Of a DNA stretch of 64,000 nt, positions 2,893 to 52,155 are shown piece by piece. Positions within the stretch are counted from its first letter, which is position 1; every line of letters begins with the position of its first letter. The notes under the pieces are model-generated. The model worked only from the letters and a program-made list of their open reading frames with translations, had not been told where the DNA came from and made no database searches. Source of the stretch: Chloroflexota bacterium (GTDB lineage Bacteria > Chloroflexota > Limnocylindria > Limnocylindrales > CSP1-4); the NCBI GenBank assembly GCA_021785175.1, contig JAJYGH010000081.1, positions 40,245 to 104,244 on the forward strand, in the 5' to 3' direction. The position numbers and the translations under genes were made by a program.

Positions 2893-3942
2893 TCACCAGC
2901 CGGCGCCATCGGCCAGGCGCTCCCAGACGAGATCCGCGCCGGCGCGCGCCGTGCCTGCCGCGAGCGCCGCGCGCTGCCGGTCCCACGCGGCCCGCGCCGA
3001 TCCGGCATCCTGCGCCGCGAACCTGACGCCGTATCCCGGCCGCAGCTGCCCCAGCCGCGGCCACTCCCACCGCGGCACCACGCCGATCACCGGGTAGCCG
3101 CCGATCGTCGGGCCGTCGACGAACAGGATCACGGGCCGGCCGTCGGCGGGAACCTGGATTGCGCCGGGCAGCATCGGATGCGACAGGATCTCGCGGCCCG
3201 GTGCCAGGGCCTCGACACCGTCGTGGGGCTCGAGCCGGATGCCCATCCGGTCGCACGCGTCGGCGACGCGCCAGCTCCGGGCCCGGAACGCCTCGACCGC
3301 GCGCCCGTGGAGATGCCGGAGATCCGGGCCGGGCACGAACGCGATCGGGTCCACCGACCGTGCGGGATGCGGAGCGAGCGCGGCCGGCCACGTCCTGCCG
3401 ACAGCGTCGAGGTGTCCGCGCCGGACGGGCGCGATGACATCGCCGGCGCGCAGCGGACGTCCGTCGATCCCGCCGAGAGCTGCTGCGACACAGGTCGACG
3501 CGGAGCCGAGGACGAGGCGGGCGTCGATCCCGCCGGGCAGCCCGAGGTACGCGCGCATCCCCGTGCCGCCCGCGAACCCGATCTCCGCGCCCGCCGCCAC
3601 GCGGTGGACGCGGCCCGGCGCGAGGCGGGTGCCGTCGTCGAGTTCCGCGCCCAGGTCTCCGCCTGACAGCGCGACGGCGCACGTCTCGATGGCTCGCAGG
3701 CGGGTCCCGCCGAGCGTGACCTCGAGCGCGACGGGGCCGGACCCGTTGACGGGACGCACTGCGGAAACGGCCGCGCTCGAGGCGTCGCCGGCGCCGTCCG
3801 GCCTTCCGTCCGCCAGCAGGATCGCGACCTCGTACGACCAGGGATCGGCAGGCCCGGACGGGGGTACCCCGAGGTGCGCGAGGCCGGGCCTGCCGCGGTC
3901 CTGCAGGGTGAGAAGAGCGCCGGGCGAGACGACCTCGAGCAC
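2893..3942 (-). CDS. pxpC: 5-oxoprolinase subunit C (allophanate hydrolase subunit 2-like)
   Basis: LTLQDRGRPG..GVPPSGPAD, DRMGIRL, PGAIQVPADGRPVILFVDGPTIGGYP. Confidence 0.9.
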   Translation of the reverse strand: MLEVVSPGALLTLQDRGRPGLAHLGVPPSGPADPWSYEVAILLADGRPDGAGDASSAAVSAVRPVNGSGPVALEVTLGGTRLRAIETCAVALSGGDLGAELDDGTRLAPGRVHRVAAGAEIGFAGGTGMRAYLGLPGGIDARLVLGSASTCVAAALGGIDGRPLRAGDVIAPVRRGHLDAVGRTWPAALAPHPARSVDPIAFVPGPDLRHLHGRAVEAFRARSWRVADACDRMGIRLEPHDGVEALAPGREILSHPMLPGAIQVPADGRPVILFVDGPTIGGYPVIGVVPRWEWPRLGQLRPGYGVRFAAQDAGSARAAWDRQRAALAAGTARAGADLVWERLADGAGW

Positions 3943-3948
3943 GTCAAT

Positions 3949-4686
3949 TCATGGGTGAGGACGACGAGGGGGAATCGGCACGAACCGGACGCGGTCGCCG
4001 GGCGCGAGGAGCGCGGGCGGATCGCGTCCGGGGTCCCAGAGCGCGGCGTCGGTACGCCCGATGAGGTGCCAGCCGCCGGGCGTCTCGAACGGGTAGATGC
4101 CGGCCTGGCGGCCCGCGATCGCGACGCTGCCGGCGGGCACGCGGACGCGCGGCGTCGCGCGGCGCGGGAGATCGAGGGCGGCGGGCAGGAAGCCGAGGTA
4201 TGGGAACCCGGGCATGAACCCGACCACGAGCACGCGGTACTCGACCGACGCGTGGAGCGCGATGACCTGCTTCTCCGACAGCCCCGTGCGCCCGGCGACC
4301 TCCGCGAGATCCGGGCCATCCGACCCGCCGTACGACACCGGGATCTCGTGCCGCACGCCGCCGTCGAAGGGCAGCGGGATCTCGCTCCTGGTGACGCGGC
4401 CGCGCTGCGCGCGCTGCCGCGTCCCGGCGAGCGCTGCCAGGAGCAGGTTCCTCAGCTCGTTCTCGGACATGCGATCGGGCTCGAACGACACGAGGACGCT
4501 GGCGTGGCCCGGCACGGGGGCGCCGAGGCCGGGCATCTCCGCCCGCCGGCGCTCGAGCCAGGCCGCTGCCCGAAGCGCCCAGCCGCTCGTCTCGATATCG
4601 AGGTCGTCGCCGAGGGACGCGATCAGGGCCGCGTCGCCGGCCTGGTCGATGCGGGGCGCCGGCGGCTCGCTGCGACCCTCAGGCAC
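3949..4686 (-). CDS. pxpB: 5-oxoprolinase subunit B (KipI-like)
   Basis: [53 protein letters not shown] start chosen because it overlaps the pxpA stop. Confidence 0.9.
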
Positions 4687-5443
4687 CGGGCGCGCGCACC
4701 TCGACGCCGGCCGCTTCGAGCGCTCGGCGGACCGCTGCAGCGATCGCGGGCGCGCCGGGCGTGTCGCCGTGCAGGCAGATCGTGTCGGCCGGGACCGCGA
4801 CCCGGGAGCCATCGACGGATCTCACCCGCCCGTCACAGGCGATCGCAACGGCCTGCGCCGCGGCCACCTCCGGATCCTCATTGAGCGCTCCCGGCAGGTC
4901 GCGCGACCGGAGCCGGCCCGACGGCTCGTACGCGCGGTCGGCGAACCCCTCCGCGAGCGGCCGCAGGCCGAGATCGACGGCGGCCGCGAGCAGCAGCGAG
5001 CCGGGTGGGCCGACGATGGCGAGGCGGGAATCCAGCCGAGCGACCGCCCGGACGAACGCCATCGCGGCGGCCCCGTCGCCGGCGACGTGGTGGTACAGGG
5101 CGCCGTGCGCCTTGACGTGGACGAGGCGGCCGCCCTCCGCGCGGGCTATCCCGGCAAGGGCGGCGACCTGGTACAGCACCGCAGCTTCGAGTTCCTCCGG
5201 GGCGATCGACATCGCCCGACGCCCGAACCCCACGAGATCCGGAAAGCCCGGGTGCGCGCCGACCGCCACCCCGGCATCGACGGCCAGGCGAACCGTTCGC
5301 CGAATCGTGAGGGGATCACCTGCGTGGAACCCGCACGCGACGTTGGCCGAGGTGAGGAACGGCATGAGGGCGGCGTCTGCGCCCATCTGCCACGCCCCGA
5401 GGCTCTCGCCGACGTCGGCGTTGAGATCGATGTGGCCGGCCAT
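4679..5443 (-). CDS. pxpA: 5-oxoprolinase subunit A (LamB/YcsF family)
   Basis: [53 protein letters not shown]. Confidence 0.95.
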
Positions 5444-5604
5444 CCTGCGCTCTCTGGACCCGCGGCGAGACCGCGTCGCCGTCGCGCTCGATCCTACGCG
5501 CCGCCCGCGAATTCGCTCGAGCGATCCACGAATTCAGGACGGTTTCAGGGACGCGCATCACCATGATCCGCGTCTCCTCCCTCCTCCTCGGAGACGACGC
5601 GAGC

Positions 5605-5634
5605 AGAGCCCCGGCACTCCCCCGCCGGGGCTCT
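5605..5634. other. Perfect 11-bp GC-rich hairpin in the divergent pxpA/cpaF intergenic region
   Basis: agagccccggc-(actccccc)-gccggggctct; no clear U-tract, role unknown. Confidence 0.5.
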
Positions 5635-5855
5635 CGATTCCCGGGCCGGGCGCCAGGGCCGAGACGATCCCGCCTCTCGTTCCTCGCCACTCCTTCCCCC
5701 ACCCGTTCGGCGGCAGGCAGGACCCCATGGTCCCATTGCCCGGTTGTCCGAACGCACCGGGGCGGTACTCTTCTGCGGTGGCGAGGCGACTGCCCCGCCG
5801 AGGCTCGGCTCGCGGCCGCCTCGGGTCGTGGCCGGTCAGGGAGGCCGGGGGAACG

Positions 5856-7730
5856 ATGTCTCTGCTCCGCCGGGAAGCGCAGGCACAGCAGCGTGTCGAC
5901 ACGGACGGGCCCTCCACGCCGCCCGTCCCGAGCGCCCAGGCCTCCCGCCTGGCGCCCGTCGCGTCCGGCCGCGAGGAACTCCTCCGCGACCTGAGCCTGC
6001 GTCTCCAGGGTGAGGTCATCGGCGAGTTCGACTCGCTCATCCAGATCTCCGAGCAGGCGGATGTCCGCGCCAAGGTCGAGGAGCTGATCGAGCGGATCAT
6101 CCGCCAGCGCCAGTTCACCGTGACCCGCGACGAGCGCCTGCGGCTCGTGCAGGGCATGGTCGACGAGATCATGGGACTCGGACCGCTCGAGCCGCTGCTC
6201 GCCGACGACACGATCACCGAGGTGATGGTCAACGGCCCGAAGCAGATCTACATCGAGCGGGGGGGCAAGATCCAGCGCGTCGACACCGCATTCATGAGCG
6301 AGGAGCACGTGATGCGCATCGTCGACCGGATCATTGCACCGCTTGGGCGTCGACTCGACGAATCGAGCCCGCGCGTCGACGCGCGCCTGCCCGACGGCTC
6401 GCGCGTGAACGTCATCATCGCCCCGCTCTCGCTCGTCGGTCCCGTCATCACCATCCGCAAGTTCGCAGCCAGGCCGTTCACGGTCGAGGACCTCATCGGC
6501 TTCGGCACGTCGACCGCCGAGATGTTCGACTTCCTGCGCGCGTGCGTCGAGGCGCGCCTCAACATCTTCGTCTCGGGCGGCACCGGGTCCGGCAAGACGA
6601 CGTTCCTGAACGTCCTCTCGTCGTTCATCCCGAACGACGAGAGGATCATCACCGTCGAGGACGCCGCCGAGCTGCAGCTGCGCCAGGACCACGTGGTGAC
6701 GCTCGAGGCGCGGCCGCCGAACCTCGAGGGCACCGGCGAGATCACGATCCGTGACCTCATGCGCAACGCGCTCCACATGCGGCCCGACCGGATCATCGTC
6801 GGCGAGTGCCGCGCGGGCGAGGCGCTCGACATGCTCCAGGCGATGAACTCGGGCCAGGAGGGGTCGCTCTCGACCGGCCACGCGAACACGCCGCCGGACA
6901 TGCTGCGCCGCCTCGAGACGATGGTGCTGATGACCGGCTACGAGTTGCCGCTGCGAGCCATCCGCGAGCAGATCGCGTCGGCGGTCGACCTGATCGTCCA
7001 CACCGCGCGCCTCAAGGATGGGTCGCGCAAGGTCGTGAACATCACGGAGGTCTTCGGGCTCGAGGACGACGACATCCTGACCCAGGACATCTTCGCGTTC
7101 GAGCAGACCGGCGTCGTGGACGGGCGGATCCAGGGGCGCCTGTCGGCGACGGGCGTCCGCCCCACCTTCATGCCGCGCTTCAGGGCGAGCGGTATCGTCC
7201 TCCCGCCGGGCGAGTACGGCATCCCGCCCGAGGATCCGACGAAGCCGACGAGGCCGGGCAAGGGTCGCTGGGCCCTCGTGGACGCGGCCCAGGGGCTCGA
7301 CCCGTCGCGACCCGTGGTCGGCTCCGGGCGGGTCGTCGTCGCCGGCGGCATGGTGTACGTCTCGTCGATCGGACCGGTGGACCCGGCGACCGGGCAGGTG
7401 GCAGGGACGACGATCAGGACGCAGGCGCGCCAGTGCCTCGTGAACCTGAAGTCGAAGCTGGAGGACGCGGGCAGCTCGCTGGACCGGGTGGTGTGGGCGA
7501 ACTGGTCGCTGCGGGATCCGGGCGAGTTCGACGAGTTCAACGAGGAGTGGGCGCGCTGGTTCCCGGCCGACGCGCCGATCGGGCAGGGCACGCTCATGCC
7601 GCCGCTGCTCCGGCGGGCCGGGTTCCGCGTCTCGATCGGCGTGATCGCGCAGGCAGGTGACGGCGAGCCTCCGGAGGCCAGCCATTCCGGGGCCGGGTCC
7701 GTGCTCCGGCCGGCGCTCCCCGGCGTCTGA
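5856..7730 (+). CDS. cpaF: CpaF/TadA-family (Flp pilus) secretion ATPase with C-terminal RidA/YjgF-like domain
   Basis: GLGPLEPLL, EVMVNGP, VDARLPDGSR, Walker A GGTGSGKT, TVEDAAEL, LHMRPDRIIVGE, STGHAN, then an in-frame Rid-like region (VVVAGGMVYVS...DPATG...QARQCLVNLKSKLEDAGSSLDRVV). Alternative in-frame GTG start at 5778. Confidence 0.9.
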   Translation: MSLLRREAQAQQRVDTDGPSTPPVPSAQASRLAPVASGREELLRDLSLRLQGEVIGEFDSLIQISEQADVRAKVEELIERIIRQRQFTVTRDERLRLVQGMVDEIMGLGPLEPLLADDTITEVMVNGPKQIYIERGGKIQRVDTAFMSEEHVMRIVDRIIAPLGRRLDESSPRVDARLPDGSRVNVIIAPLSLVGPVITIRKFAARPFTVEDLIGFGTSTAEMFDFLRACVEARLNIFVSGGTGSGKTTFLNVLSSFIPNDERIITVEDAAELQLRQDHVVTLEARPPNLEGTGEITIRDLMRNALHMRPDRIIVGECRAGEALDMLQAMNSGQEGSLSTGHANTPPDMLRRLETMVLMTGYELPLRAIREQIASAVDLIVHTARLKDGSRKVVNITEVFGLEDDDILTQDIFAFEQTGVVDGRIQGRLSATGVRPTFMPRFRASGIVLPPGEYGIPPEDPTKPTRPGKGRWALVDAAQGLDPSRPVVGSGRVVVAGGMVYVSSIGPVDPATGQVAGTTIRTQARQCLVNLKSKLEDAGSSLDRVVWANWSLRDPGEFDEFNEEWARWFPADAPIGQGTLMPPLLRRAGFRVSIGVIAQAGDGEPPEASHSGAGSVLRPALPGV

Positions 7731-7859
7731 TCCCGGGCGCGTGCATTCCCTGCGCGCCCCCTCCCGACGGGTGGCTGGTCCTCGCCGTGCGAAGGCTGGG
7801 ATTGCCGCCGTGACGCGACGCGGGTGCGCGCGTCGGCGCTCGAGTCGGGCCGCGAGCGG

Positions 7860-8213
7860 GACGCGGTGCGGGTGATGGCCGCCGCCCCGGCGCACGTCGG
7901 CGACCTGGCCGAGTGCCGCGACCGGGTCCGCTGGTTCCCGGCGCTCGTCGGCAACCACGTCGTCGACCTCGTGAACCGCTACCGGGGCGACGACCTGCCG
8001 GCCGGCCTGACGACGTACGTCCGGACGCGCACCGGGTACGACTACCTGCACCATGCCGAGGTGGGCTCGTCGAACGCCGAATTCGTGACCGACGAGATCG
8101 TCGATCGGTTCTGCCTGGTCGGTCCGGTCGAGGCGCACGTCGCGAAGCTCCGGGAACTCGTCGCGGCGGGCGTCGACCAGTTCAACGTGTACCTGATGAA
8201 CGGCGACGAGGAC
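7860..8213 (+). pseudogene. C-terminal fragment of an LLM-class (F420-dependent, TIGR03842-like) oxidoreductase
   Basis: AAPAHVGD..RDRVRWFPALVGNHVVD...GYDYLHH...FVTDEIVDRFCLVGPVEAHVAKLRELVAAGVDQFNVYL. Only about 120 aa, with no N-terminal two-thirds and no convincing start. Confidence 0.7.
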
Positions 8214-8337
8214 GCCCGCAGTTCAGCGGCCGACTCGCCACCGGCGCGTGCCTGGCCCCTGCGGCTCGGCACTGGACGCCGGTCGGTCGATCCCGAGCGT
8301 CTTCGCGATCAGCTCGGCTCGTGTGATGCCGGGCGCG

Positions 8338-9960
8338 TCAGCTGCAGCGCGTGCCGGACTTCGGGACCGTCAGCGAGATCAGGTACGCATCGACCGCGCT
8401 GTCGATGCAGGCGCTCTGGCCGTACGCCGTGTGCCCCTGTCCGACCCGCGTGAGGAGCACGCCCGACCGGAGCTCGCCCGCGAGTTTGACGGCCCACGAG
8501 TACGGCGTCGCGGGGTCGCCTGTCGTCCCGATCACGACGATCGGGGGCGCGCCCGCGGCGCGCGGCGCGACGGGGTCGTGGGCCGGGTGGAACGGCCAGA
8601 AGGCGCACTCCAGGCCGCTGTACGCCTCGTTTGCCCCGAACCACGGCGCCTTCTGCTCGAGCGTCGTCGCGAGCTGCTCGTAGAACGACACGCTCGTCGG
8701 CACGACGGTGTCTGCGCACGTCACCGCGGTGTTCGCCGCCGCGATGTTGCTGTACGTCCCGTTCGGGTTGCGCTGGTCGTAGGAGTCGGCGAGCCGCAGC
8801 AGGATCGAGCCATCGCCCGCCTGCGCGAGCGCGAGTCCCTGCCCCAGCGCTGGCCACGCGGACACGTCGTACAGCGCCGCCGTGACGCCGGTCAGTGCGA
8901 CGCCCAGCGTCACCGGGCGGGGATCGCCGGATTCGAGGGCGGGCAGGGGCGACTGGTTGATGCGGGCCATGAGGGCGTCGAACGCGGCCTTCGGCTGGCC
9001 GCCGTTCGAGAACGCGCAGTTCTGGCTCGCGGCGCACGCCGTGAAGAAGGCGTTGAGGTTCGCGGAGAAGCTCTCCGCCTGCTGGATGAGGGAGTCGACG
9101 AACGGCAGCGTCGGATCGACCGCGCCGTCCAGCACGAACGCACGGACGCGCGCCGGGTAGAGGTTGGCGTACGTCGAGCCCAGGAACGTGCCGTACGAAA
9201 AGCCGAGGTAGGTGAGCTTCGGATCCCCAAGGGCCGCCCGGATCGCGTCCATGTCCCTTGCCGCGTCGACCGTGCTCATGTACGGCAGCAGCGCCCCGCT
9301 GTGCGCCTCGCAGCCTGCGTCGAACGTCTTCGCGGCGTTGACGATCGCCTGCCGCTCGGCCGCGGTGGTCGGAATGGGATCGAGCGCGATCATGCGGTCC
9401 ATCGTCGGCCCGCTCACACACTCGATCGCGGGCTGGCTCGCCCCGACGCCGCGCGGATCGAAGCCGATGATGTCGAAGTGGGCGCGGAGGTTCGCCGAGA
9501 AGAGCGACTGCCCCGCCTCCCGCACGAACGTCACGCCGGAGTCGCCGGGCCCCCCGGGATCGGTCAGCAGGTCGCCGATCTTCGGTCCCGGGCCCATCGC
9601 GGGCAGCCGGATCAGCGCGAGGCGCATCGAACCGTTCGCAGGGTGGGCGTAGTCGACCGGAACGGTCACCGTCCCGCACTCGAACGGCGCACCGCAGGCC
9701 GTCCACGCGATCGTCCCGGACGGAGACGACGAGGGCAGCCCGGACGACGACGACGGAGCGGACGACGGAGGCACCGCCGACGATGCGGTCGACGCCGATG
9801 CAGACGGCGATCCGAAGGCGGACGCCTGCGCCGACACCGCTGCCGACGGGCTGAGCGGAGGCATGGTGCCGCTGGGATGGGTCGCGGTGCAGGCTGAGAC
9901 GACGAGGCTCGCGAGCAGGATCAGGCCTCGGCGCGCGGCGGTCACGCGCGCGCGGTTCAC
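8338..9960 (-). CDS. Secreted/lipoprotein alpha/beta hydrolase (TAP-like tripeptidyl aminopeptidase family)
   Basis: Lipobox LVVSAC, Ser/Pro linker, DPGGPGDSG, GFDPRGVG, GFSYGT nucleophile, DPATP, GHTAY. Start could be 10041. Confidence 0.9.
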   Translation of the reverse strand: MNRARVTAARRGLILLASLVVSACTATHPSGTMPPLSPSAAVSAQASAFGSPSASASTASSAVPPSSAPSSSSGLPSSSPSGTIAWTACGAPFECGTVTVPVDYAHPANGSMRLALIRLPAMGPGPKIGDLLTDPGGPGDSGVTFVREAGQSLFSANLRAHFDIIGFDPRGVGASQPAIECVSGPTMDRMIALDPIPTTAAERQAIVNAAKTFDAGCEAHSGALLPYMSTVDAARDMDAIRAALGDPKLTYLGFSYGTFLGSTYANLYPARVRAFVLDGAVDPTLPFVDSLIQQAESFSANLNAFFTACAASQNCAFSNGGQPKAAFDALMARINQSPLPALESGDPRPVTLGVALTGVTAALYDVSAWPALGQGLALAQAGDGSILLRLADSYDQRNPNGTYSNIAAANTAVTCADTVVPTSVSFYEQLATTLEQKAPWFGANEAYSGLECAFWPFHPAHDPVAPRAAGAPPIVVIGTTGDPATPYSWAVKLAGELRSGVLLTRVGQGHTAYGQSACIDSAVDAYLISLTVPKSGTRCS

Positions 9961-23137: not shown

Positions 23138-23986
23138 TCAGGACTCCAGGTCGATTCGCTCCGGGTGCGCGTACACGTTGAAGCCGTCGCCCCGCAGGAA
23201 CCCGATGAGCGTCATGCCGAGGCGATCCGCGGCCTCGACCGCGAGGTCGGTCGGCGCCGAGACGGCGCACGTCACGGGAATTCCGGCCATCGCCGCCTTC
23301 TGCACGATCTCGAAGCTGACGCGCCCGGAGACGAGCAGCAGCGACGCGTGCAGCGGGAGCCGCCGGCCGATCGCCATCGACCCGACCAGCTTGTCGAGCG
23401 CGTTGTGCCGCCCGACGTCCTCGCGGACGCCCTGGGGCCGGCCATCGGCGTCGAACAGCCCTGCGGCGTGGAGGCCTCCCGTCGCGTCGAAGGCCGCCTG
23501 CGCCGCGCGCAGGACCGGCGGCAGCGCGAGCACGGTCGTCCGGGTGACGGCCGGCCCCGGTGGCAGGAGATCGCAGCGGGTCTCGACGTCGTCGAGCGAC
23601 GCCTTCCCGCAGATCCCGCAGCTCGCGGTCACGGCGAAGTGGCGGCTGGCGGTCCGCGAGGCATCGAACGCGCGGGCGAGGCGGACGGTCACGACGTTGT
23701 CGGGGCGGGCGACGACGGCGGGGTCGGCGAGATCGAACCCGACGATCTCGTCGGGAGCGACGAGCCCCTCCGTGACGAGGAACCCCGCCGCGAGTTCCTC
23801 GTCGTGGCCCGGCGTCCGCATCGTCACCGCGACGTCGACAGGCTCCTGCCCGGGGCCTGCGGCACGGATCTCCATCGGCTCCTCGCCCGCGAGCGCGTCC
23901 GGGCGGTTCTGCACGATGGGGCCGCGGACCGCGAGCGTCCGGATTCCGATGATGTCGCGACCGGGTGAGGAGAGCCCTGGATGCAC
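23138..23986 (-). CDS. fdhD: Formate dehydrogenase accessory sulfurtransferase
   Basis: EEPMEI, TMRTPGHD, SCGICGK, TGGLHAA, EDVGRHNALDK, SGRVSFE, SAPT. GTG start at 23986 inferred from a GAGG RBS. Confidence 0.95.
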   Translation of the reverse strand: MHPGLSSPGRDIIGIRTLAVRGPIVQNRPDALAGEEPMEIRAAGPGQEPVDVAVTMRTPGHDEELAAGFLVTEGLVAPDEIVGFDLADPAVVARPDNVVTVRLARAFDASRTASRHFAVTASCGICGKASLDDVETRCDLLPPGPAVTRTTVLALPPVLRAAQAAFDATGGLHAAGLFDADGRPQGVREDVGRHNALDKLVGSMAIGRRLPLHASLLLVSGRVSFEIVQKAAMAGIPVTCAVSAPTDLAVEAADRLGMTLIGFLRGDGFNVYAHPERIDLES

Positions 23987-24122
23987 GGCGTGCCTCGGGA
24001 TGCGTGGCCGGAGCGGGCCAGGCGCGTCACCGGTCGCGCGGCTGCCGCGACCGACCCCGGGACTATAGCGCTCCGTCGCCGCCGGTCCACCCAGGGGGCC
24101 GGTCCTCCTAGACTTGGCCGCG

Positions 24123-24269
24123 ATGCCGCGCCTCGTGACCGCCATGCGCCGCGTCGCCCCGCTCCGCGAGGGCGGCTCGCGCCCCGCGATCGTCGAGGCT
24201 GACGATGACGGGCTCTACGTCGTGAAGTTCCGCCTGGCCGCGGCTCCGTCGAGCTCCGCGGGCTCGTGA
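24123..24269 (+). pseudogene. Truncated N-terminus of a HipA-like kinase (48 aa)
   Basis: MPRLVTAMRRVAPLREGGSRPAIVEADDDGLYVVKFR matches the recognisable PLREGGSxPxxVEADDxGxYVxKF start of this family, then diverges and stops. Not in the ORF track. Confidence 0.7.
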
Positions 24270-27256: not shown

Positions 27257-30955
<3,699 letters not shown>

Positions 30956-31033
30956 CCCGTGGAACGTGCAGCGAACGGCGCACGCGGGCTGGATCCCGAC
31001 CTGGTTCTCGGCGTCCGGTGCGGCCGCGCGGCC

Positions 31034-33553: not shown

Positions 33554-33765
33554 TGTCGACTCCCCGGTTCGGCGCGTCGTCACCCGGTCTGCGTACCCGG
33601 AGTTGAGGAGACACGACAACGGCGGACGCGGTGTTACACCGGCGTGACGCGGCACCCTGGGCGGCGTCGGCAAGGCGGTTCGCAAGGCGCGCTGGCCCGA
33701 AGTGGCAGGCGCGCCAGTACCTTCGGTGCAGTGTCGCGAGCGCTCGCAGACGGTACGGTCGGGCC

Positions 33766-35304
33766 ATGTCGCGGCTCCGCGCGGTGGCCCCGCTGCTCCC
33801 GGCCGCCGTCCTCGCCATTCTCGCCCTCGCAGTCGCCGTTGCCGGATCTGCCCCGGGGGCCGCTGCCGTCCTCGCATTCGCGACGGTCGGATCGCTCGTC
33901 GGCACGGCCGCGACCGCCGTGTCCGCCCGTGCCGACGCGGTCGCCCTGCGCCGGCGCCTCGCTGCGCTCGCCGACGGGTCGGCGACGCCGGAGCTCGCCA
34001 GTCCGTGGTACGGGCCGCTCGCCCCGGTCGCGCGCGGCCTCGTCGACGCGGCCGCCGCGTTCCACGCCGCGCAGGAGGCCGCAACGGTGGACCGCCTCAC
34101 GCACGTGCTCAACCGGCCGGCGATGATCGAGCGCTTGTTCGAGGAGGTCGATCGGGCCACTCGCTACGGGCGGCCGCTTTCGCTGGCCTTCGTGGATCTG
34201 GATCACTTCAAGACGGTCAATGACACGCACGGCCACGCCGTGGGCGACGTGGTCCTCCGGGGCGTGGCCGCGGTGTTCCTCGAGAACCTGCGCGACATCG
34301 ACGTCGTCGGGAGGTACGGCGGCGAGGAGTTCGTGATCGTGCTGCCGGAGACGCCGATCGGCGAGGCGATGGCGGTCGTCGAGAAGCTCCGGCTGCTGAT
34401 GCTCAAGCAGCGGTTCCGCGCGGGGGATGGGACGGAGCTCACGGTCTCGATCTCGATCGGGCTCGCGGGCGGCCATGGCACGCGGCTGCGGGCCGAGGAC
34501 CTGATCCGTGACGCGGACGCCGCGATGTACTCGGCGAAGGCTCTCGGCCGCAACCAGGTCTACGTGTTCAGCGAGCCCGATGACGACGCGCGGATCCCTC
34601 GCGCCCCGATCTCCCCGGCGGGACGGGCCAAGGCGGCCGAGGTCGGGATCACGGCGCGCCAGGCGGCGGAAGCCGCGCTGTCCGCGGCGGTCTCGCCGCT
34701 GCCGCACTACCGCGGCAAACCGTCGTCGCTGATCGCGGCGATCGCGGTGCGTCTGGCCCGTGAGCTCGGCCTTCCCGAGCAGGAGGTCGAGCGTGTCCGC
34801 GTCGCCTCGCTCCTGCACGACATCGGGAAGGTCGCAGTGCCGGAGCAGATCCTGGAGAAGCCGGGGCCGCTGACCACGGACGAGTGGCAGAGCGTGGTGC
34901 AGCATCCGCGGATCGGTCAGGCGATCATCGACCAGGTCGGCGCCGTCCGCGACGCCGGCGCGATCATCCTCCACCACCACGAGCGCTTCTCGGGCCACGG
35001 CTACCCCTACGGTCTCCGAGGTTCGGACATCCCGCTCGGTGCCCGGATCGTCGCGATCGCCGACGCGTACGACGCGATGATCAACGACCGTCCGTACCGG
35101 CGCGGCGTCGGCCACGAATCGGCGGTCGCCGAGCTGCGGCGCCATGCGGAGATCCAGTTCGACCCGAAGCTCGTCGACCTGTTCTGCGATATCTACGGCA
35201 GGGAGGCGCCCGTGCCCGACCCGTCGCTGCTGATCGCCCCGTCGCCCCAGGGGCGTGGCGCGGCGCAGATCTCGCGGGCATCCCGCCGCGCGGCGTCGGC
35301 GTAG
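33766..35304 (+). CDS. Membrane-anchored diguanylate cyclase / HD-GYP domain protein
   Basis: 2 TMs; DLDHFKTVND, RDID I-site, RYGGEEF; LLHDIGK, HHHERFSGHGYP, ADAYDAM..RPYR. Confidence 0.93.
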   Translation: MSRLRAVAPLLPAAVLAILALAVAVAGSAPGAAAVLAFATVGSLVGTAATAVSARADAVALRRRLAALADGSATPELASPWYGPLAPVARGLVDAAAAFHAAQEAATVDRLTHVLNRPAMIERLFEEVDRATRYGRPLSLAFVDLDHFKTVNDTHGHAVGDVVLRGVAAVFLENLRDIDVVGRYGGEEFVIVLPETPIGEAMAVVEKLRLLMLKQRFRAGDGTELTVSISIGLAGGHGTRLRAEDLIRDADAAMYSAKALGRNQVYVFSEPDDDARIPRAPISPAGRAKAAEVGITARQAAEAALSAAVSPLPHYRGKPSSLIAAIAVRLARELGLPEQEVERVRVASLLHDIGKVAVPEQILEKPGPLTTDEWQSVVQHPRIGQAIIDQVGAVRDAGAIILHHHERFSGHGYPYGLRGSDIPLGARIVAIADAYDAMINDRPYRRGVGHESAVAELRRHAEIQFDPKLVDLFCDIYGREAPVPDPSLLIAPSPQGRGAAQISRASRRAASA

Positions 35305-43835: not shown

Positions 43836-44830
43836 CGGCGGCCGCCCAGGAACGACAGGCCGACGAGCGCGCCGAGGGTCCCGGCCGCGAGCGCCATCCA
43901 CCCGTAGATCGACGGGAGGTCGCGCGTCGTCGCCACCGGGTCGGGCGGCAGGCCGTAGACCTCGGGCTCGTCGAGCAGCAGGAAGAACGCGCCGAACCCG
44001 CCGACGCCGTCGTCCGGGTTCGCGCCGTACAGGCGCGCGCCATCGAACCCTCGCGCGACGACCTGCTCGAGCCGTCGCGACGCCCGCTCGCGAAGCTCGT
44101 CCAGCTTGCCGAACTGGATCGATTCGGTCGGGCAGGCCTTCGCGCAGGCCGGCTCGAGGCCGTCCTTCGTCCGGTCGTAGCAGAGCGTGCACTTCTGGGC
44201 CATCCCGACGCCCTTCGACCCGGCGATCTCGCGCCGCCCGATCACGCCGAACGGGCACGCCACCACGCAGTAGCCGCAGCCGTTGCACACGTCCTGCTGG
44301 ACGACGACGGTCCCGAACTCGGTCCGGAACAGCGCCCCGGTCGGGCACACGTCGAGGCAGGCCGCGTCCGTGCAGTGCTTGCACACGTCCGACGACATGA
44401 GCCAGCGCATGCCCTCGCCACCGTCGCCGCGTGGGGCGTCGGGCGGCGGGTACCCGTCGCCGCGCGGCGCACCGCCGGACGGCCGGTCGCGAAGGGGAGC
44501 CGCGTCGGGTCCCGCCGCGCCGTCGCGCATCTCGGCCTCGCGCAGGCGTGCCTTCGACGGCGCGACGTGGAGCGGCCGGTCCTGCTCGATGAACGCCACG
44601 TGCCGCCACGTGTTCGCGCTCAGGCCGCCGGTGTTGTCGTACGAATTGCCCGTCCACACGTAGCCGTCGGCCGGGACGTCGTTCCACTCCTTGCACGCGA
44701 CCTCGCACGCCTTGCACCCGATACAGAGCGTGGTGTCGGTGAAGAAGCCGAGGCGCGGTCTCGCCTCGTCGCCGTAGCTGGCAGGCCAGGCGTCGGGCCG
44801 TTCGACGACGGGCAGTGGACGTCGCATCAT
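43832..44830 (-). CDS. fdnH: Formate dehydrogenase iron-sulfur (beta) subunit
   Basis: CIGCKACEVAC, CKHC..C..CP, CNGCGYCVVACP, KCTLCYDR..PACAKACP; C-terminal TM. Confidence 0.93.
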   Translation of the reverse strand: MMRRPLPVVERPDAWPASYGDEARPRLGFFTDTTLCIGCKACEVACKEWNDVPADGYVWTGNSYDNTGGLSANTWRHVAFIEQDRPLHVAPSKARLREAEMRDGAAGPDAAPLRDRPSGGAPRGDGYPPPDAPRGDGGEGMRWLMSSDVCKHCTDAACLDVCPTGALFRTEFGTVVVQQDVCNGCGYCVVACPFGVIGRREIAGSKGVGMAQKCTLCYDRTKDGLEPACAKACPTESIQFGKLDELRERASRRLEQVVARGFDGARLYGANPDDGVGGFGAFFLLLDEPEVYGLPPDPVATTRDLPSIYGWMALAAGTLGALVGLSFLGGRR

Positions 44831-47800
44831 CGGCCCTCCGACCGTGTTCCGGGCGCATGCTCCTGCGGCGCCTGCGTGACGTCTCCGTCGCGCGTGATCC
44901 GCGGGTAGCTCTCGACGAGCCGGCGGAGTGCCGGTCCGCGCGGCCTCCTTCCCGGCCGAATGTCGCAGCTCGCGGCCTTGACCTCCTCGATGTGGACGTT
45001 CGGGTCGAGTGCCAGCGGAACCACGTCGTTTGCCGAGTCGCCGGTCACGATCCCGTTGCGTCCCCAGTGATACGGCAGGCCGACCTGGTGGACGGTCTTC
45101 CCCTGCACGTCGAGCGGCCGGATGCGCTCCGTGACGAGGACTCGCGCCTCGATCGCACTCCGCGACGTCACGATCGTCGCCCACCCGCCGTGCTCGAGGG
45201 CGCGGAGCGCGGCGAGTTCCGGGCTGACCTCGCAGAACATCTCGGGCTGCAGCTCGGACAGGTGCGGCACGAACCGGCTCATGCCGCCCGCCGTGTGGTG
45301 TTCCGTGAGGCGGTACGTCGTCATGACGAAGGGGTATGCGTCGGCTCCCGGGCTGTCGCCGCTCGGGTTGTACGGGTTCGCGGGACGGAAGAACCGCTGG
45401 CGTGGCGGGTTCGCGCGCTGCGGGTACAGCAGGTTCGCGAACGGCGATTCCTCGGGCTCGAAGTGTGTGGGGAGCGGGCCGTCGACGACGCCGCGCGGCG
45501 CGAAGATCCAGGCGCGGCCGTCGGGGTGGGCGATGAACGGGCGCCGGCCGTCGATCGCCGCCAACGCTCGTGCTCCATCGGGTGGCCGGTAGTCCGGCCC
45601 GTGATCGGGGGCGAAGTCGATCTCGTCGTCACCGACCCACCGCTGCGACGCCTCGTCCCACCACATGAGCTTCTTGCGCTCCGACCACGGTTTCCCCTGC
45701 GGGTCCGCCGAGGCGCGGTTGTACAGGATGCGGCGGTTCTGCGGCCACGCCCAGCCCCACTCGCGGCCTTCGAGCCCCTGCTCCCAGTGCGGTTTCCGCC
45801 GCGCGGTCCGGTTCACGCCATCGGCGTAGCAGCCGCAGTAGATCCAGCAACCGCACGTCGTCGACCCGTCTGCCTTCAGCTGCGCCGACGCCGACAGCAG
45901 CGTGCCGTCCGCCTGCCGGCCGTTGATCTCTCGCAGCACGGCCTCGCCGTCGGGCTCCTCGGTCGCGCCCGTCAGCGGGTACTCCCAGGCGAGTTCGAGC
46001 AGCCCGCGGTCGCGCGGGTCGGTCGAGTTCGCCAGCTTCTCGCGGATGATCCGGCCGAGGTGGTACATGAACCACAGTTCGCTGCGGGCGTCGCCCTTCG
46101 GCTCGACCGCCTGGTCGCGCCACTGGAGCAGCCGCTGCGTGTTCGTGAACGAACCCGCCTTCTCGACGTGCGACGCTGCGGGCATGAAGAACACCTCGGT
46201 CGGGATGTCCCCGGTCCGCAGTTCGCCCGTCTCGATCTCGGGGGCATCGCGCCAGAACGTCGCGCTCTCGATCTCGACGAGGTCGCGCACGACGAGCCAG
46301 TCGAGGTGGGCGAGCGCGAGGCGGTGCAGCCGCGAGTGGGCGGAGCCGACGGCCGGGTTCTCGCCGAGCAGGAAGTACCCCTTCACCGAGCCGTCCATCA
46401 TCCCGAGCGTCGCCTGGTACGCCGAGTGATCGCCGCTGATGCGCGGCAGGTAGTCGAAGCAGAAGTCGTTCTCGGCGGTCGCCCGGTCGCCCCAGTACGC
46501 CTTCAGCAGGCTCACGATGTAGGCGTCGACCGTTCCCCAGATCCCGCCCGGAGCCGTCTGCGACTCGATATACGTCCGCAGGTCATGTCGGGCCTGCGCC
46601 GCGGGCATCGGCAGGTAGCCCGGCAGGATGTCGAACAGGGTCGGAATGTCGGTCGAGCCCTGGATCGATGCGTGGCCGCGGAGCGCCATGATCCCACCGC
46701 CCGGCCGGCCGATGTTGCCGAGGAGCAGCTGGATGATCGCCGCGGTCCGGATGTACTGGACGCCGACCGTGTGCTGCGTCCAGCCGACCGAGTAGACGAA
46801 CGACGCCGTTCGCTCGCGACCGGAGTTGTCGCACAGGGCCCTGGCGACGAACCGGAGGTCGTCCGGAGAGCAGCCGCAGATCTCGGCGACGCGCTCGGGC
46901 GTGTAGCGGCTGAAGTGCCGCTTGAGGATCTGGAAGACGCAGCGCGGGTCCTCGAGCGTCGGGTCCATGTGCGGCGGGTCGCAGCACGGCGCCCCGGCGC
47001 TGTGCCCGCCGAAGCCTGTCGCCTGGTCGGTGGGCGCGCCCATCTCGCGGTGGCCGTGCATCGGGCTCGGGTCGGCGCCGTCGTATCGCCACGTCTCGTT
47101 GCCGTACGACCGGCTCGCCTCGTCCCAGCCCGAGAAGAACCCGCCGAGGTCCTCGGTGTCGCGGTACTCGTCGGTGATGATCGCGGGCGCGTTGGTGTAC
47201 TCGACGACGTACTCGCGGAACTCGCGCCCGTTCTCGAGGATGTAGTTGACGATTCCGCCGAGGAACGCGATGTCGGTCCCGGCGCGGATCTGGACCCACT
47301 TCGTCGCGGTCGCGCTCGTCCGCGTGAACCGCGGGTCGACGTGGATGACCTGCGCGCCCCGCTCCCTGGCCTCCATCACCCACTGGTACGCGACCGGGTG
47401 GTTCTCCGCCATGTTGGAGCCCATGATGAGGATGCAGTCCGAGTTGACGAGGTCACCCGGATACGTCGTGGCCCCGCCCCGTCCGACCGAGGTCCCCAGA
47501 CCGGGGACCGTTGCGCTGTGTCAGAGACGGGCCTGGTTCTCGACGGAGACGACCCCCAGCGCCGTGAAGAGCTTCTTGATCAGGTAATTCTCTTCGTTGT
47601 CGAGGGTCGCGCCGCCGAGCGAGCCGATGCCGAGGGTCCGGTTGACGCGAACCCGTCCGTCCTGGGTGTCGATCTCGTCCTGCCATGTCTCGCGCCGGGT
47701 GGCGATCACGCGGTCCGCGATCATGTCCATCGCGGTGTCCAGCGCAAGCTCCTCCCACTCCGTGCCGTACGGCCGCCGGTATTTCACCCTGTACTGGCGG

Positions 47801-48099
47801 AGCGGGCTCGTCACGAGCTGGCGTGACGCGGACCCCTTCGGGCAGAGCCGGCCACGGTTCAGCGGGCTGGCGGGATCTCCCTCGATCTGCGTGACCTCGC
47901 CGTCCTTGACATACACGAGCTGCGCGCAGCCGACGGCACAGTAGGGGCAGACCGAGTGATAGACGGCATCCGCGGTCTTCGTGCGGGGCTCGAGCGCCGC
48001 GGAGCCCTCCGACTGTGCGGCGCGGCCGAGACCGAGGAGATCGTGGTCGCGGACCTGGCGGACGATGGGCAACGAGCGGAGGCGCTGCAACGGTTCCAC
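44827..48099 (-). CDS. fdnG: Selenocysteine-containing formate dehydrogenase alpha subunit (about 1090 aa; UGA at 47521-47523 = Sec193)
   Basis: Two track ORFs are in one frame, joined by ENQARL-TGA-HSATVPGLG (FdnG ARV-U-H motif). CPYCAVGC...C Fe-S motif; SECIS follows; sel genes adjacent. Confidence 0.95.
47488..47520 (-). promoter_or_regulatory. Bacterial SECIS element
   Basis: 11 nt after UGA: GGUCCCC-GGUCU-GGGGACC hairpin (stem and loop at 47491-47509) with a G-containing apical loop. Confidence 0.9.
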
Positions 48100-48249
48100 C
48101 GAGGCTTCCCTTCCAGCCTGACCGCGGCTGCCGCCGCATGACCGCGCCCGCGCTGCGCGGTTGCATGACCCTCGCACCTTCGCCGCCTCGCGGGAATACC
48201 AGCCGCGGCGGGCAGCGTCACGAAAGCGCATACGCGCGGCCGCGCCACA

Positions 48250-48296
48250 CCCGACCTGGGCTCCGGTCCCGACCCGGGCTCCGGTCCCGACCCGGG
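48250..48296. repeat. 18-bp tandem repeat (about 2.6 copies) between selB and fdnG
   Basis: cccgacc(t/c)gggctccggt x2 + cccgacccggg. Confidence 0.8.
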
Positions 48297-48300
48297 CGCG

Positions 48301-50334
48301 TCAGGCCCGGCCTGCTCGTGGCCCCGCCACGTGCCCCGCCGGCGTCCGCGCAAGCACTCCGCGTCGGTCGAGCTCCTCGATGATCGCGACCACGTACCGG
48401 CGGCTCGTGCCGGTCGCGTCGCGGAGCGCTGCCGGCGTGAGCGGCCCCTGCCGGGCGAGGCGGACGGCGACCGACTCGATCGCGGCAAACGCGGAGGCGG
48501 CATATGCCAGGTCGTCCTCGAGTCGCACCAGCCGGCCGCTCTCCTCGAGCCGGCGGAGAGTGGCGGGCGTGCACCCGGACGCCACGACCGCCGCGCGGAG
48601 ACTCGGCGGGGCGGGCACTGCGAGCGCCGCGAGCAGGCGATCCCCTGCCTCGTCCTCCGCGCTCCGGGCGTTCCCCGCGACACCCGGTGCCGCGGCACGG
48701 TTGCCATCGCGGACGATCCGGCCCGACGCGACCAGCCGATCGATCGCGCGGGCTGCGGCGTGCAACGCCTCGCGCTCCGGCAGCGAGCTCCGCCGCCGGA
48801 TCTCGGCCGCCCCGGCCGCACGCAGCGTCGCGAGGTCCAGTGTCCCGGCCCCCGCCTCCGAACCGTCCAGCGCCCCGAGGACACCCTGCTCGCATGCACG
48901 CTCGACGTCCGGCGCGAGAACGGGTTCGGCGCCGTCGGGACGGTCGGGGAGGGCCGGTACCCGTCGAAGCGCGCCGTGGAGGTCGACGAGGGCCGGCAAC
49001 GAATCGCGCCCGAACTCGAGCGCCTCCGCCAGCGCGGTGAGCCGCGGCCGATCCACCCGGTGGCGGGCCGCTCCGCGTGGCGGGCTCACCTCGAGCACGA
49101 CGCCGCCGGCCACGGCCTCGGCCGGGCTCGGCCGTCGGAGCACGAACCGGTCCCCGCGGGCGGCAGCGACCGGCCGCGACAGTCGGAGCAGGCACGTCAT
49201 CCGTCCGTCGGCGAGCCCCGCCGCCTCGCGTCGCCCGCGCCCCACGACCGCATCGACCTGGTCGGTGCCGGTGTGGAGGCGGAGGATCTCGCCGGACCGG
49301 GAGGGCCGGATCGGACGCAGCGCGACCAGGAGACGCGCCGTCTCGACCACGCTCGTCCCATCGGACAGCACGGAGCCGCGCCGCACCTGCTCCGGATCGA
49401 TCCCCACGAGGTTGAGCGCCACGCGTCCCCCGGCCGCCGCGCGCGGCACGGGCTGGCCATGCACCTGAACCTCGCGGACACGGACCGGGCGGCCCCCGGG
49501 GTCCAGACGGAGAACGTCGCCGGGCGCGATCGAACCGCCGCGGAGGCTTCCCGTGACCACCAGGCCGCGCCCCCGCACGACGAACGACCGGTCGACCCCC
49601 AGCCGCACGGGCCCCATCCCGAACCTGGCTCGCGCGCGCACGCGCCGATCGAGCCCCTCGAGCGCCTCTCGCAGCTCGCCCATCCCCTCGCCGCGGACGG
49701 CCGACACGCAGACGATCGGGGCGCCGGCGAGCGTCGTTCGCGCGATCATCTCCTCGGCCTCCTGGGGCACGAGCACGGCGCGCGGATCGTCGGCGTCGTC
49801 GAGCAGGTCGAGCCGTGTGACGGCCACGACGCCGTCCGCGATGCCGAGCGCGTCGAGCAGCTCGAGGTGCTCGAGAGTCTGCGCCCGAGCGCCATCGTCC
49901 GCCGCCACCACGAGCAGCGCCGCGTCGATCTCGCCCGCCCCGACGAGCATGTTCCCGACGAGCCGATCGTGCCCCGGCACGTCGACGAAGTCGAGCCCCG
50001 CGCCGTCCGGCAGTGTCATGTACGCGTACCCGACGTCGATGGTCATGCCGCGCCGGTGCTCCTCCGGCAGCCGGTCCGCGTCGATCCCGGTGAGGGCGCG
50101 GAGGAGCGTGGTCTTGCCGTGGTCGATGTGACCGGCGGTGCCGACCACGACGCTTCCCACGGTGAGGTCCGAGACGGCGTCCCTCGATCGCGACCGCGCC
50201 GTGGCCGCGGTTTCCGCCACCGCGCGCCCCGTGCCGGCCGCCATCCGAGCGCTTGTCCTCGCGTCGCCTGCCGCCGCCGCCGATCCTGTTGGCCGGACCA
50301 CGCCGGTCATCGCCTGGCCTCCCGCGCGGCTCAT
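48301..50334 (-). CDS. selB: Selenocysteine-specific elongation factor
   Basis: [32 protein letters not shown]-terminal winged helix TSRRY..IIEELDR; ATG overlaps the selA stop. Confidence 0.95.
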
Positions 50335-51854: not shown

Positions 51855-51869
51855 GCTTCCTCCGATGTC

Positions 51870-51966
51870 TGGCGGGAGCGAATGGGAGTCGAACCCACCG
51901 CGCAGCGCTGGGCGCCGCGCCACAGGTTTTGAAGACCAGGGGGCCCACCGGGACCCACGCGCTCCC
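51870..51966 (-). tRNA. selC: tRNA-Sec (anticodon UCA)
   Basis: 97 nt; 6-bp D stem with 4-nt loop, anticodon loop CU-UCA-AA, long variable arm, GUUCGACUC T-arm, G73 and encoded CCA. Confidence 0.96.
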
Positions 51967-51989
51967 AGCGGGATGGTACCCCGGCCCCG

Positions 51990-52028
51990 CGAAGGCGCGA
52001 CTGCAGTGACACGAAGGCGCCACTGCAG
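51990..52028. repeat. 17-bp direct repeat (22-bp period) in the selC/selD divergent promoter region
   Basis: cgaaggcgcgactgcag ... cgaaggcgccactgcag. Confidence 0.7.
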
Positions 52029-52155
52029 GGGCCCGGTGGCCGCGGACGGAGGTCGGGCCCCACCGGGCCCGCGTCCGACTGTCGCGAACGAGACCGCGCC
52101 GTGGCGACCCGCCGATCCCACGGCCTCCCGCCCGGCGGCCCCTATGATTCCCCGC

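Follow-up and report, generated by a model that had tools for sequence, protein, structure and literature searches.

How one CpaF ATPase both extends and retracts Tad pili is an active question. In a recent preprint (Whitfield et al., 10.64898/2026.02.24.707734), CpaF is proposed to flip on its platform and so to reverse pilus movement, the N-terminal face serving extension and the C-terminal face retraction; in the part of that work available to us, a CpaF R387A substitution gives pili that fail to retract, and a C-terminal mCherry, meant to block the face, abolished observed retraction. Its support comes from AlphaFold modelling, from point mutations and from an artificial tag placed at the C-terminus. 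The Rid proteins belong to a different family, in which Arg105 is described as indispensable for imine hydrolysis and ligands are known to bind in the clefts (Niehaus et al. 2015, PMC4433059, as far as the consulted part of that article goes). Here we describe a gene in which members of these two families are joined in a single chain. It lies at positions 5856 to 7730 (plus strand) of a 64,000-nucleotide stretch of Chloroflexota DNA (GenBank assembly GCA_021785175.1, contig JAJYGH010000081.1), which we call the window and which has a G+C content of 73%. We find that the fusion is a genuine and conserved accessory CpaF/TadA paralogue, that its ATPase part is a non-standard CpaF, and that its Rid domain is predicted to be catalytically degenerate. 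With these properties in mind we tentatively suggest, at somewhat less than an even chance, that the protein is an accessory motor working in one orientation only (extension or holding), its C-terminal face covered by a non-catalytic Rid cap.

Anatomy and authenticity of the fused gene

The complete open reading frame encodes 624 residues followed by a TGA stop, and its ATG at 5856 is preceded, 11 nt on the 5' side, by what reads as a Shine-Dalgarno-like GGGAGG (5839-5844, plus strand, as are all features of the gene). A low-complexity N-terminus of 70 residues (5856-6065), the first of which agree with the consensus of relatives, lies ahead of the stretch that can be aligned with CpaF. The ATPase body, residues 71-447 (6066-7196), corresponds to residues 111-489 of the solved Caulobacter crescentus (Cc) CpaF (PDB 9e24, chain A; phmmer E 3.2e-118). 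This alignment begins at residue 71 and is gapless to residue 421, so that Cc numbering is that of the window protein plus 40. The Pfam T2SSE family (PF00437) matches residues 107-385 (E 1.5e-59, 201.9 bits against a cut-off of 24.9), and the Walker A motif GGTGSGKT (residues 241-248, 6576-6599), the Walker B motif DRIIVGE with Glu317 (6786-6806), and the Asp and His boxes are all present.

The last segment in common with the C-terminal tails of unfused canonical CpaFs is LPPGEYG (7200-7220). Since unfused CpaFs of the same family terminate only 4 to 7 residues past the shared LPPGxFG, the Rid domain has been joined at the extreme C-terminus of CpaF. Between the two lies a Pro/Gly/Ala-rich linker, residues 456-486 (7221-7313), with a conserved IPPEDP motif and Lys469 that are kept in 11-12 of the 12 relatives identified by a search free of motif patterns. 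The Rid-fold domain proper comprises residues 487-600 (7314-7655) and is matched by Pfam Ribonuc_L-PSP (PF01042) over residues 493-574 (E 7.3e-14, 52.3 bits against 27.3, profile positions 14-97 of 121), in agreement with the preliminary description of this DNA, made from its letters alone, which had placed a Rid fold behind a proline-rich linker. A further family, PF27713.1, is also listed among the precomputed domains of fused homologues; that family is absent from the set used for our Pfam scan.

The same description had taken the gene to be one in-frame reading frame with normal codon bias over the junction, and third-position GC does stay at 0.93-0.98, in a single phase, from about 5940 to 7650, unbroken from ATPase to Rid. 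Logan contigs from four runs of one study, two of which may be the source of this assembly, bridge the junction without indels (6900-7852, 7077-7852, 7086-7564 and 7548-8212). In a whole-protein search of 40 relatives, the same fused frame was found in 13 of the 24 other genomes of the family and contig-end fragments of it in two more, and the apparent internal stops in relatives are their natural stop after ...VIAEA. When GTDB species representatives were scanned with motifs, 303 stretches were confirmed and 80 of them retained for analysis; Walker A and Rid share one open frame in 77 of these, the remaining three being cut by contig ends, so that every one of the 77 loci of other species that can be evaluated has an intact fusion. 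Because a match to either of two motifs was a condition of the scan, the conservation of these two motifs in the set of 80 follows in part from the way the set was chosen. In a large protein collection, 1442 proteins of 343-1092 residues match the C-terminal part at E <= 1e-5 and, among the matches listed, all 120 carry both PF00437 and PF01042 under the automatic names CpaF or RidA.

Substitution rates were obtained by the Nei-Gojobori method. For 32 sequences, 33 of 65 having been left out by an anchor motif, the median ratio of nonsynonymous to synonymous rates (dN/dS) is 0.19 for the ATPase, 0.41 for the CpaF tail plus linker and 0.24 for the Rid domain. For a set of 89 rows, which includes 7 duplicates and for which only median dN and dS are given, the corresponding pairs are 0.108 and 0.542, 0.387 and 0.902, and 0.173 and 0.644. 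By both sets of values the Rid domain, like the ATPase, is under purifying selection. A chimeric assembly, or a neutral read-through that arose lately between two adjacent genes, could draw on the odd 3' end of the window copy (a 24-residue extension followed by a truncated monooxygenase gene), but contigs of four runs cover 6900-8212 without indels, the frame is intact in every evaluable locus of other species, the Rid part is under purifying selection, and for five standalone Rid relatives that were examined no cpaF was found within 8 kb; we give this explanation practically no credence. Relatives share the fusion, the Rid part shows the mark of purifying selection and the C-terminus matches the Rid family, three points on which the preliminary description had staked itself.

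In quick maximum-likelihood trees all fused ATPases fall on one side of a branch with a Shimodaira-Hasegawa-like approximate likelihood-ratio test (SH-aLRT) support of 100, and, with distant paralogues as outgroups, the fused clade is nested within the canonical tad-locus CpaF group of the class (support 99). Among copies from the same five genomes, mean core identity is 84.4% for the fused proteins versus 96.0% for canonical CpaF, the p-distance of the fused copies being about 3.9 times that of the canonical ones. The fused ATPases form a single clade, which evolves about four times faster than its canonical counterpart. An origin by fusion of adjacent genes was also considered and was set aside, as 0 of 5 standalone Rid relatives examined have a CpaF-like match within 8 kb.

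Altered residues of the ATPase and of the Rid domain

The residues of 82 distinct fused sequences were compared with three unfused sets: 18 canonical CpaFs from families here labelled f1 and f4, 15 other paralogues from f3 and f5 (drawn from 20 loci, five of which had no open reading frame with a Walker A by pattern and were left out), and 30 homologues from across the phylum, two of which come from genomes already used. Fused and canonical CpaF show fixed differences at just seven positions. Four changes deserve mention, one of them at Cc347, which is His in 82/82 fused sequences and Arg in 63/63 unfused ones (18/18 canonical, 15/15 paralogues, 30/30 phylum); in the window protein it is His307 (codon CAC, 6774-6776). 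R347 is described as an arginine finger that reaches the gamma-phosphate from the adjacent subunit, is conserved across type IV filament ATPases, and has a PilT equivalent whose mutation abolishes twitching (PMC12019362 and PMC11300603, in the parts consulted). The finger is held by D215, and two residues ahead of D215 the fused clade has acquired a new arginine: Cc213 is Arg in 80/82 fused sequences (Arg173 in the window, 6372-6374, beside the cis arginine fingers) and in 0/48 canonical-type ones, being Met in 18/18 canonical CpaFs and not Arg in any of the 30 phylum homologues.

A second pair of changes lies at and near the residue linked to retraction. Cc P386-R387 corresponds to Pro346-Pro347 of the window protein (6891-6896), R387 being the residue whose alanine substitution gives the retraction phenotype in the consulted part of 10.64898/2026.02.24.707734. 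Cc387 is Arg in 48/48 canonical-type homologues (18/18 canonical and 30/30 phylum), and in the 82 fused sequences it is Pro in 26, Arg in 16, Ala in 13, Lys in 8 and other residues in the remainder. Cc391 is Arg in 79/82 fused sequences and Ser, Ala or Gly in the unfused. Two pore-loop positions, E295 and T297, are also fixed differences of the fused clade, in which the canonical GMEGDVIVMQD has become G[IL]EDDEILTQD; we suspect that this stretch is the beta13-beta14 turn of the preprint.

Other functional positions are unchanged. K247, T248, E272, E317 and H342 are present in 82/82 fused sequences, R177 and R183 (the cis fingers, Cc R217 and R223) in 80/82, and R319 (Cc R359) is conserved within the same range of 80-82, the motifs for ATP binding and hydrolysis being retained. 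The contacts of the extension face, with the loop 8 and pore-loop residues that meet the platform and their ranges defined as in the accessible part of PMC12019362, are kept in fused and unfused proteins alike: G204, R205, R206 and D208 of loop 8 (Cc S201-P212; G164, R165, R166 and D168 of the window protein, 6336-6371) and E331 and G334 of the extended pore loop (Cc T325-T337; E291 and G294, 6708-6746). The preliminary description's 'complete CpaF' is right as to the Walker A motif and the Asp and His boxes, and has to be amended as to the trans finger and the retraction residue: in this ATPase the trans finger is lost and the constraint on R387 is relaxed.

These residues bear on a reading in which the fused protein is a brake or dominant-negative pseudo-motor, one that binds ATP and hardly hydrolyses it and that keeps pili static either as an inert hexamer or by poisoning mixed hexamers with CpaF. 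Few residues of the superfamily are as well conserved as the finger that meets the neighbour's gamma-phosphate, the mutation of its PilT equivalent leaves cells without twitching in the sources just cited, His is fixed in its place in every fused sequence, and the paralogue evolves several times faster than canonical CpaF. Against this, a protein that served purely as an ATP-binding scaffold could do without some of the catalytic residues, and the eight just listed are kept in 80-82 of 82 sequences; moreover, the fixed Arg at Cc213, by the nucleotide pocket, looks compensatory. We regard a brake as unlikely, if well worth keeping in mind.

The Rid domain is altered as well. It matches 43 PDB Rid chains at E <= 0.001 (best E 1.5e-13), and a HMMER alignment to PDB 3l7q sets PIGQ opposite PARS. 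A BLASTP alignment with the genome's own standalone RidA, which is encoded on contig C41, has the full catalytic set and is 33% identical, pairs SSI with SGQ, PIGQ with PARS and VSIG with VEIE, the very three alterations that the preliminary description had picked out. The loss of Arg105 extends to the whole family, the position being Gly (Gly576) in 89/89 fused rows and the residue that follows being Gln577 in 89/89. The Glu120 position is Ser593 in 89/89 rows, and SGQ (SSI, residues 503-505, in the window) is replaced by SS[IVML] across the fused family. The Tyr17 equivalent, which had been thought absent, is rather a variable position, occupied by Tyr in 12/89 rows. Of the residues that mark a RidA-type imine deaminase (Arg105; Tyr17 and Glu120), Arg105 and Glu120 are missing from every fused row and Tyr17 is not conserved, and the Rid domain scores 48.6 bits with NCBIfam TIGR00004, under the cut-off of 106.25. 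The domain, we conclude, is without the Rid catalytic residues and would be catalytically degenerate.

The closest standalone Rid relatives are proteins of 126-155 residues from several Chloroflexota families, 42-52% identical to the fused domain; [YF]SQ, SGQ-type motifs and PPARQG are all retained in them, and their Glu position is occupied by Ser. Since they keep Arg, Tyr and SGQ, the loss of these is peculiar to the fused form. Many proteins of about 400 residues with three tandem Rid domains (P0032, P0035, P0047 and others) also occur among relatives of the Rid part. A reading of the gene as a defence gene was rejected: the PADLOC match to PD-T4-2_B is weak and at the level of the domain (Rid residues 493-573, E 1.2e-8), with none for the ATPase.

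The remodelled cleft raises the possibility of a ligand-gated motor, in which a small molecule bound in the Rid cleft alters ATPase activity or the choice of face and so links pili to metabolic state, an idea already put forward in the preliminary description and compatible with a cap. The cleft residues have not decayed: G576, Q577 and T579 within the conserved P-[VI]-G-Q-G-T, and likewise S593, are each present in 89/89 rows, G489 and G491 in 88-89 of 89, R586 in 76/82 and R587 in 80/82 fused sequences, as would be typical of a site that still binds, and Rid clefts do take ligands according to the portion of PMC4433059 consulted. Against it, the carboxylate-binding Arg105 is lost, which makes the usual 2-oxo-acid, amino-acid or imine ligands unlikely, and the neighbourhood contains no conserved metabolic gene, even the most frequent cluster of neighbours being found at 9 of 80 loci. 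Gating by a ligand is, on balance, a possibility to which we would assign about one chance in four.

Distribution, the canonical tad locus and a candidate mode of action

By their record titles the carriers of the fusion are Chloroflexota, mostly Candidatus Limnocylindrales or Limnocylindria. The preliminary description had raised the question of how the architecture is distributed. Among 200 genomes sampled from the class, all at least 85% complete and with seven unpublished ones in the f3 and f4 tallies, a fused-length match is found in 50/72 genomes of family f1 and in 0/10 of f2, 0/38 of f3 and 0/79 of f4. In a phylum sample of 400 genomes, an end-to-end profile of CpaF tail plus Rid matches 17/23 f1 genomes and no other family, the matches outside f1 being standalone Rid genes only. 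The fusion is confined to one Limnocylindria-type Chloroflexota family among the genomes sampled, and within its genera it is patchy. Some genomes have two intact fused copies on different contigs (loci L081/L084, L074/L086 and L109/L112; contigs C9 and C2 of genome G186). In two genomes second fused copies broken across frames (G006:C15:36389-38247 and G008:C16:85708-87550) look like pseudogenes or sequencing errors; both genomes also have intact fused copies, with transposase and integrase genes nearby.

The fused gene is an orphan. As stated in the preliminary description, no TadB, TadC, CpaB or Flp gene flanks it, tblastn with these proteins being blank in the window, and none is found in the stored flanks of 88 related loci. 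Neighbour families recur only to a limited extent (a cluster with Ham1 and RNase PH alongside at 9/80 loci, LytR-type at 9, cyclase-AAA ATPases at 8), and we read them as local synteny rather than partners. The Tad pilus that the same account had imagined elsewhere in the genome, together with a second, canonical cpaF, is indeed there: the genome, which is 92% complete, has exactly two T2SSE and two T2SSF matches. Apart from the T2SSE match of the fused gene itself, all of these belong to a canonical tad locus on contig C47 that has no secretin (flp-like, cpaB, REC-cpaE, cpaF, tadB, tadC), and the TadB/TadC of that locus is the genome's sole platform. More widely, 48 of the 50 fused-bearing f1 genomes have a second CpaF, and the other two have tadB and tadC at the extreme start of a contig.

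It could be supposed instead that the fused protein serves a Tad-independent machine, in DNA transfer, in secretion or on its own, with Rid as a recruiter. It is always an orphan, in variable surroundings that sometimes include transposase or integrase genes; the NCBIfam model that fits it best is TIGR03819 (TadA family conjugal transfer-associated ATPase), below the cut-off (334 versus 373.15 bits); and three incomplete genomes carry the fusion without detectable T2SSF. Such a role is hard to reconcile with the nesting of the fused clade in the canonical cpaF group of the class, with the retention of the loop 8 and pore-loop residues that contact TadB/TadC, with the lack of any second platform or further T2SSE-family ATPase in the 92%-complete genome, and with the presence of a second CpaF or of TadB/TadC in 50/50 fused-bearing genomes of at least 85% completeness. 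We consider a Tad-independent role improbable.

The C-terminal position of the fusion, the relaxed R387, the kept extension contacts and the single platform together lead us to infer an accessory motor that uses its N-terminal face only. The fused protein would dock on the same TadB/TadC platform as canonical CpaF by that face alone. The Rid domain, which is probably a trimer, given the trimeric nature of Rid proteins, would cover the C-terminal face needed for retraction much as the mCherry tag does. Rid homotrimers have their clefts between subunits, and the invariance of the segments that line the cleft lends the trimer some indirect support. The ATP cycle would be altered, and probably slowed, by the His finger, possibly with compensation from the Arg at Cc213. 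In competition with the bidirectional canonical CpaF, such a motor would shift pili towards an extended, adhesive and non-retracting state, and the Rid domain would act as a pseudo-enzyme, a steric and oligomerising cap whose remodelled, invariant cleft may also bind a ligand. Because the finger is lost, R387 is relaxed and a C-terminal tag has a published effect, the evidence points to altered catalysis with a blocked C-terminal face as a better fit than a plain spare motor with a sensor. The fullest version, in which a bidirectional motor has been made one-faced by a dead Rid trimer and rewired fingers, giving a PilB/PilT-like split of labour with a cap possibly under ligand control, is rather doubtful.

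Several points weigh against the proposed one-orientation motor. The linker of about 30 residues is long and probably flexible, so that Rid may swing off the face and the cap need not be obligatory. The Arg at Cc391, one helical turn past 387, may substitute for R387, and the His finger could abolish hydrolysis and leave a brake in place of a motor. The trees carry SH-aLRT support only, with no bootstrap, and the branching inside the canonical-type group is unresolved in them. The co-occurrence of fusion and tad genes in 50/50 genomes is weak evidence, because 71/72 f1 genomes have a CpaF anyway. Finally, the three genomes that carry the fusion without a T2SSF match are 84, 61 and 73% complete, and the missing T2SSF in such genomes cannot be interpreted.

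The 3' end of the window copy departs from that of its relatives. DNA similarity to relatives ceases at 7654/7655, the site of their stop after ...VIAEA (64/71 fused proteins terminate 2 residues past the VIA motif), and the window frame runs on for 24 more codons, a C-terminal extension (7656-7727) found in this genome only. The downstream reading frame, 7824-8453, matches only positions 206-314 of a 314-position luciferase-like monooxygenase profile, and a small deletion has probably removed the stop codon together with the 5' part of this neighbouring monooxygenase gene. Contigs of run X4, which is not flagged as a possible source of the assembly, show the same arrangement.

On its other side the fused gene is flanked by a divergent minus-strand operon (2893-5443) with LamB/YcsF, CT_C_D and CT_A_B domains, presumably the domain set of 5-oxoprolinase PxpABC. 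The intervening 412 nt contain a CU-rich run and, beyond it, a perfect GC-rich hairpin of 11 bp (5605-5634, within a feature at 5563-5642; fold z-score -2.05). An Rfam search of 5300-6000 gave only a sub-threshold ar14 match (30.3 bits versus 58.8), a promoter and terminator scan of 5380-5900 found none, and the region is unconserved in relatives, whose DNA similarity begins only inside the coding region.

Elsewhere in the window, a protein at 33607-35304 has GGDEF and HD-GYP-type (HD_5) domains, for synthesis and breakdown of cyclic di-GMP in one chain; it may bear on pilus regulation and is unlinked to the fusion. A selenocysteine cluster at 44827-53238 comprises a tRNA-Sec (51870-51966, minus strand), a SelB-type elongation factor (48301-50358, minus), a SelD-like AIRS protein (51829-53238, plus) and a molybdopterin formate-dehydrogenase-type gene, in which two adjacent minus-strand frames, 47521-48300 and 44827-47520, are connected through an in-frame TGA at 47521-47523 (context ARL-U-HSATV). 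The window also has an FdhD gene, at 23138-24214. The 1258-residue protein at 27257-31033 combines 2-oxoacid dehydrogenase acyltransferase (E2) with E1, transketolase and OxoGdeHyase_C domains, a fused 2-oxoglutarate dehydrogenase that we take to resemble the actinobacterial OdhA/Kgd type.

Comparison with known systems

The closest solved relative of the ATPase part is C. crescentus CpaF/TadA (PDB 9E24-9E29, 8RJF and 8RKD), the bifunctional Tad motor, with which it aligns over residues 71-447 at E 3e-118. The two have in common the Walker A and B motifs, the Asp and His boxes, R217, R223, R359, loop 8 and the pore-loop contacts. They differ in that the fused protein has His for R347, Arg at Cc213, an unconstrained R387 and Arg at Cc391, as well as about 170 additional C-terminal residues (linker, Rid and tail). 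Unlike the CpaF/TadA genes encoded in tad loci, the fused gene lies outside any tad locus.

The nearest analogue of the whole architecture is the artificial CpaF-mCherry of 10.64898/2026.02.24.707734, which likewise carries a folded domain at the CpaF C-terminus and whose pili, in the portion of the preprint consulted, extend with retraction unseen. The Rid domain differs from that tag in being a natural, conserved and probably oligomeric addition, on a linker of about 30 residues and accompanied by active-site changes. What the family offers to the inversion proposal is a natural counterpart across hundreds of uncultured soil species, a CpaF paralogue with an occupied C-terminus beside an ordinary CpaF, so that sequences already made by selection can serve to test the inversion model as well as what the finger does. 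If the one-face reading is true, evolution would have confirmed the ATPase-inversion model independently, and a cap that is possibly under ligand control would let a metabolite or nucleotide switch pili between holding and retraction; if the protein only duplicates the canonical motor and its tail is passive, the gene amounts to a small point of annotation in Limnocylindria genomes.

With PilB and PilT the system has in common two paralogous hexameric ATPases on one platform, PilB and PilT being predicted to use opposite faces (same preprint, in part). It is unlike them in that both paralogues are CpaF-type, that the canonical one keeps the features of both faces, and that there is no AIRNLIRE-type motif. 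A PilB/PilT-like division of labour between the CpaF paralogues is a conjecture.

On the Rid side, the domain resembles the RidA/YjgF/UK114 imine deaminases in its fold-level PF01042 match above the cut-off and in its 33% identity to the genome's own RidA, and differs from them in having Gly for Arg105, Ser for Glu120, SS[IVML] for SGQ and a variable Tyr17 position, and in being fused rather than free. Like the Rid4-Rid7 subfamilies, of unknown function, it is without the arginine of imine hydrolysis; by their description in the accessible part of PMC4433059, these retain the glutamate, and their Arg site is taken by Trp or varies, unlike the Ser at the Glu site and the invariant Gly at the Arg site of the fused domain. 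The fused Rid is a clear case of a retained pseudo-enzyme and bears on the unexplained Rid subfamilies that lack Arg105. A precedent for covalently fused Rid domains is found in the 3x-RidA tandem proteins described in the same article; there Rid is joined to Rid, unlike the single Rid placed here on a hexameric motor ATPase. The CpaF-Rid architecture is present in public databases under automatic names, and we found no description of it in the literature searched. Both halves come from well-known families; what is new is their combination, the pseudo-enzyme nature of the Rid domain and the rewired arginines of the ATPase.

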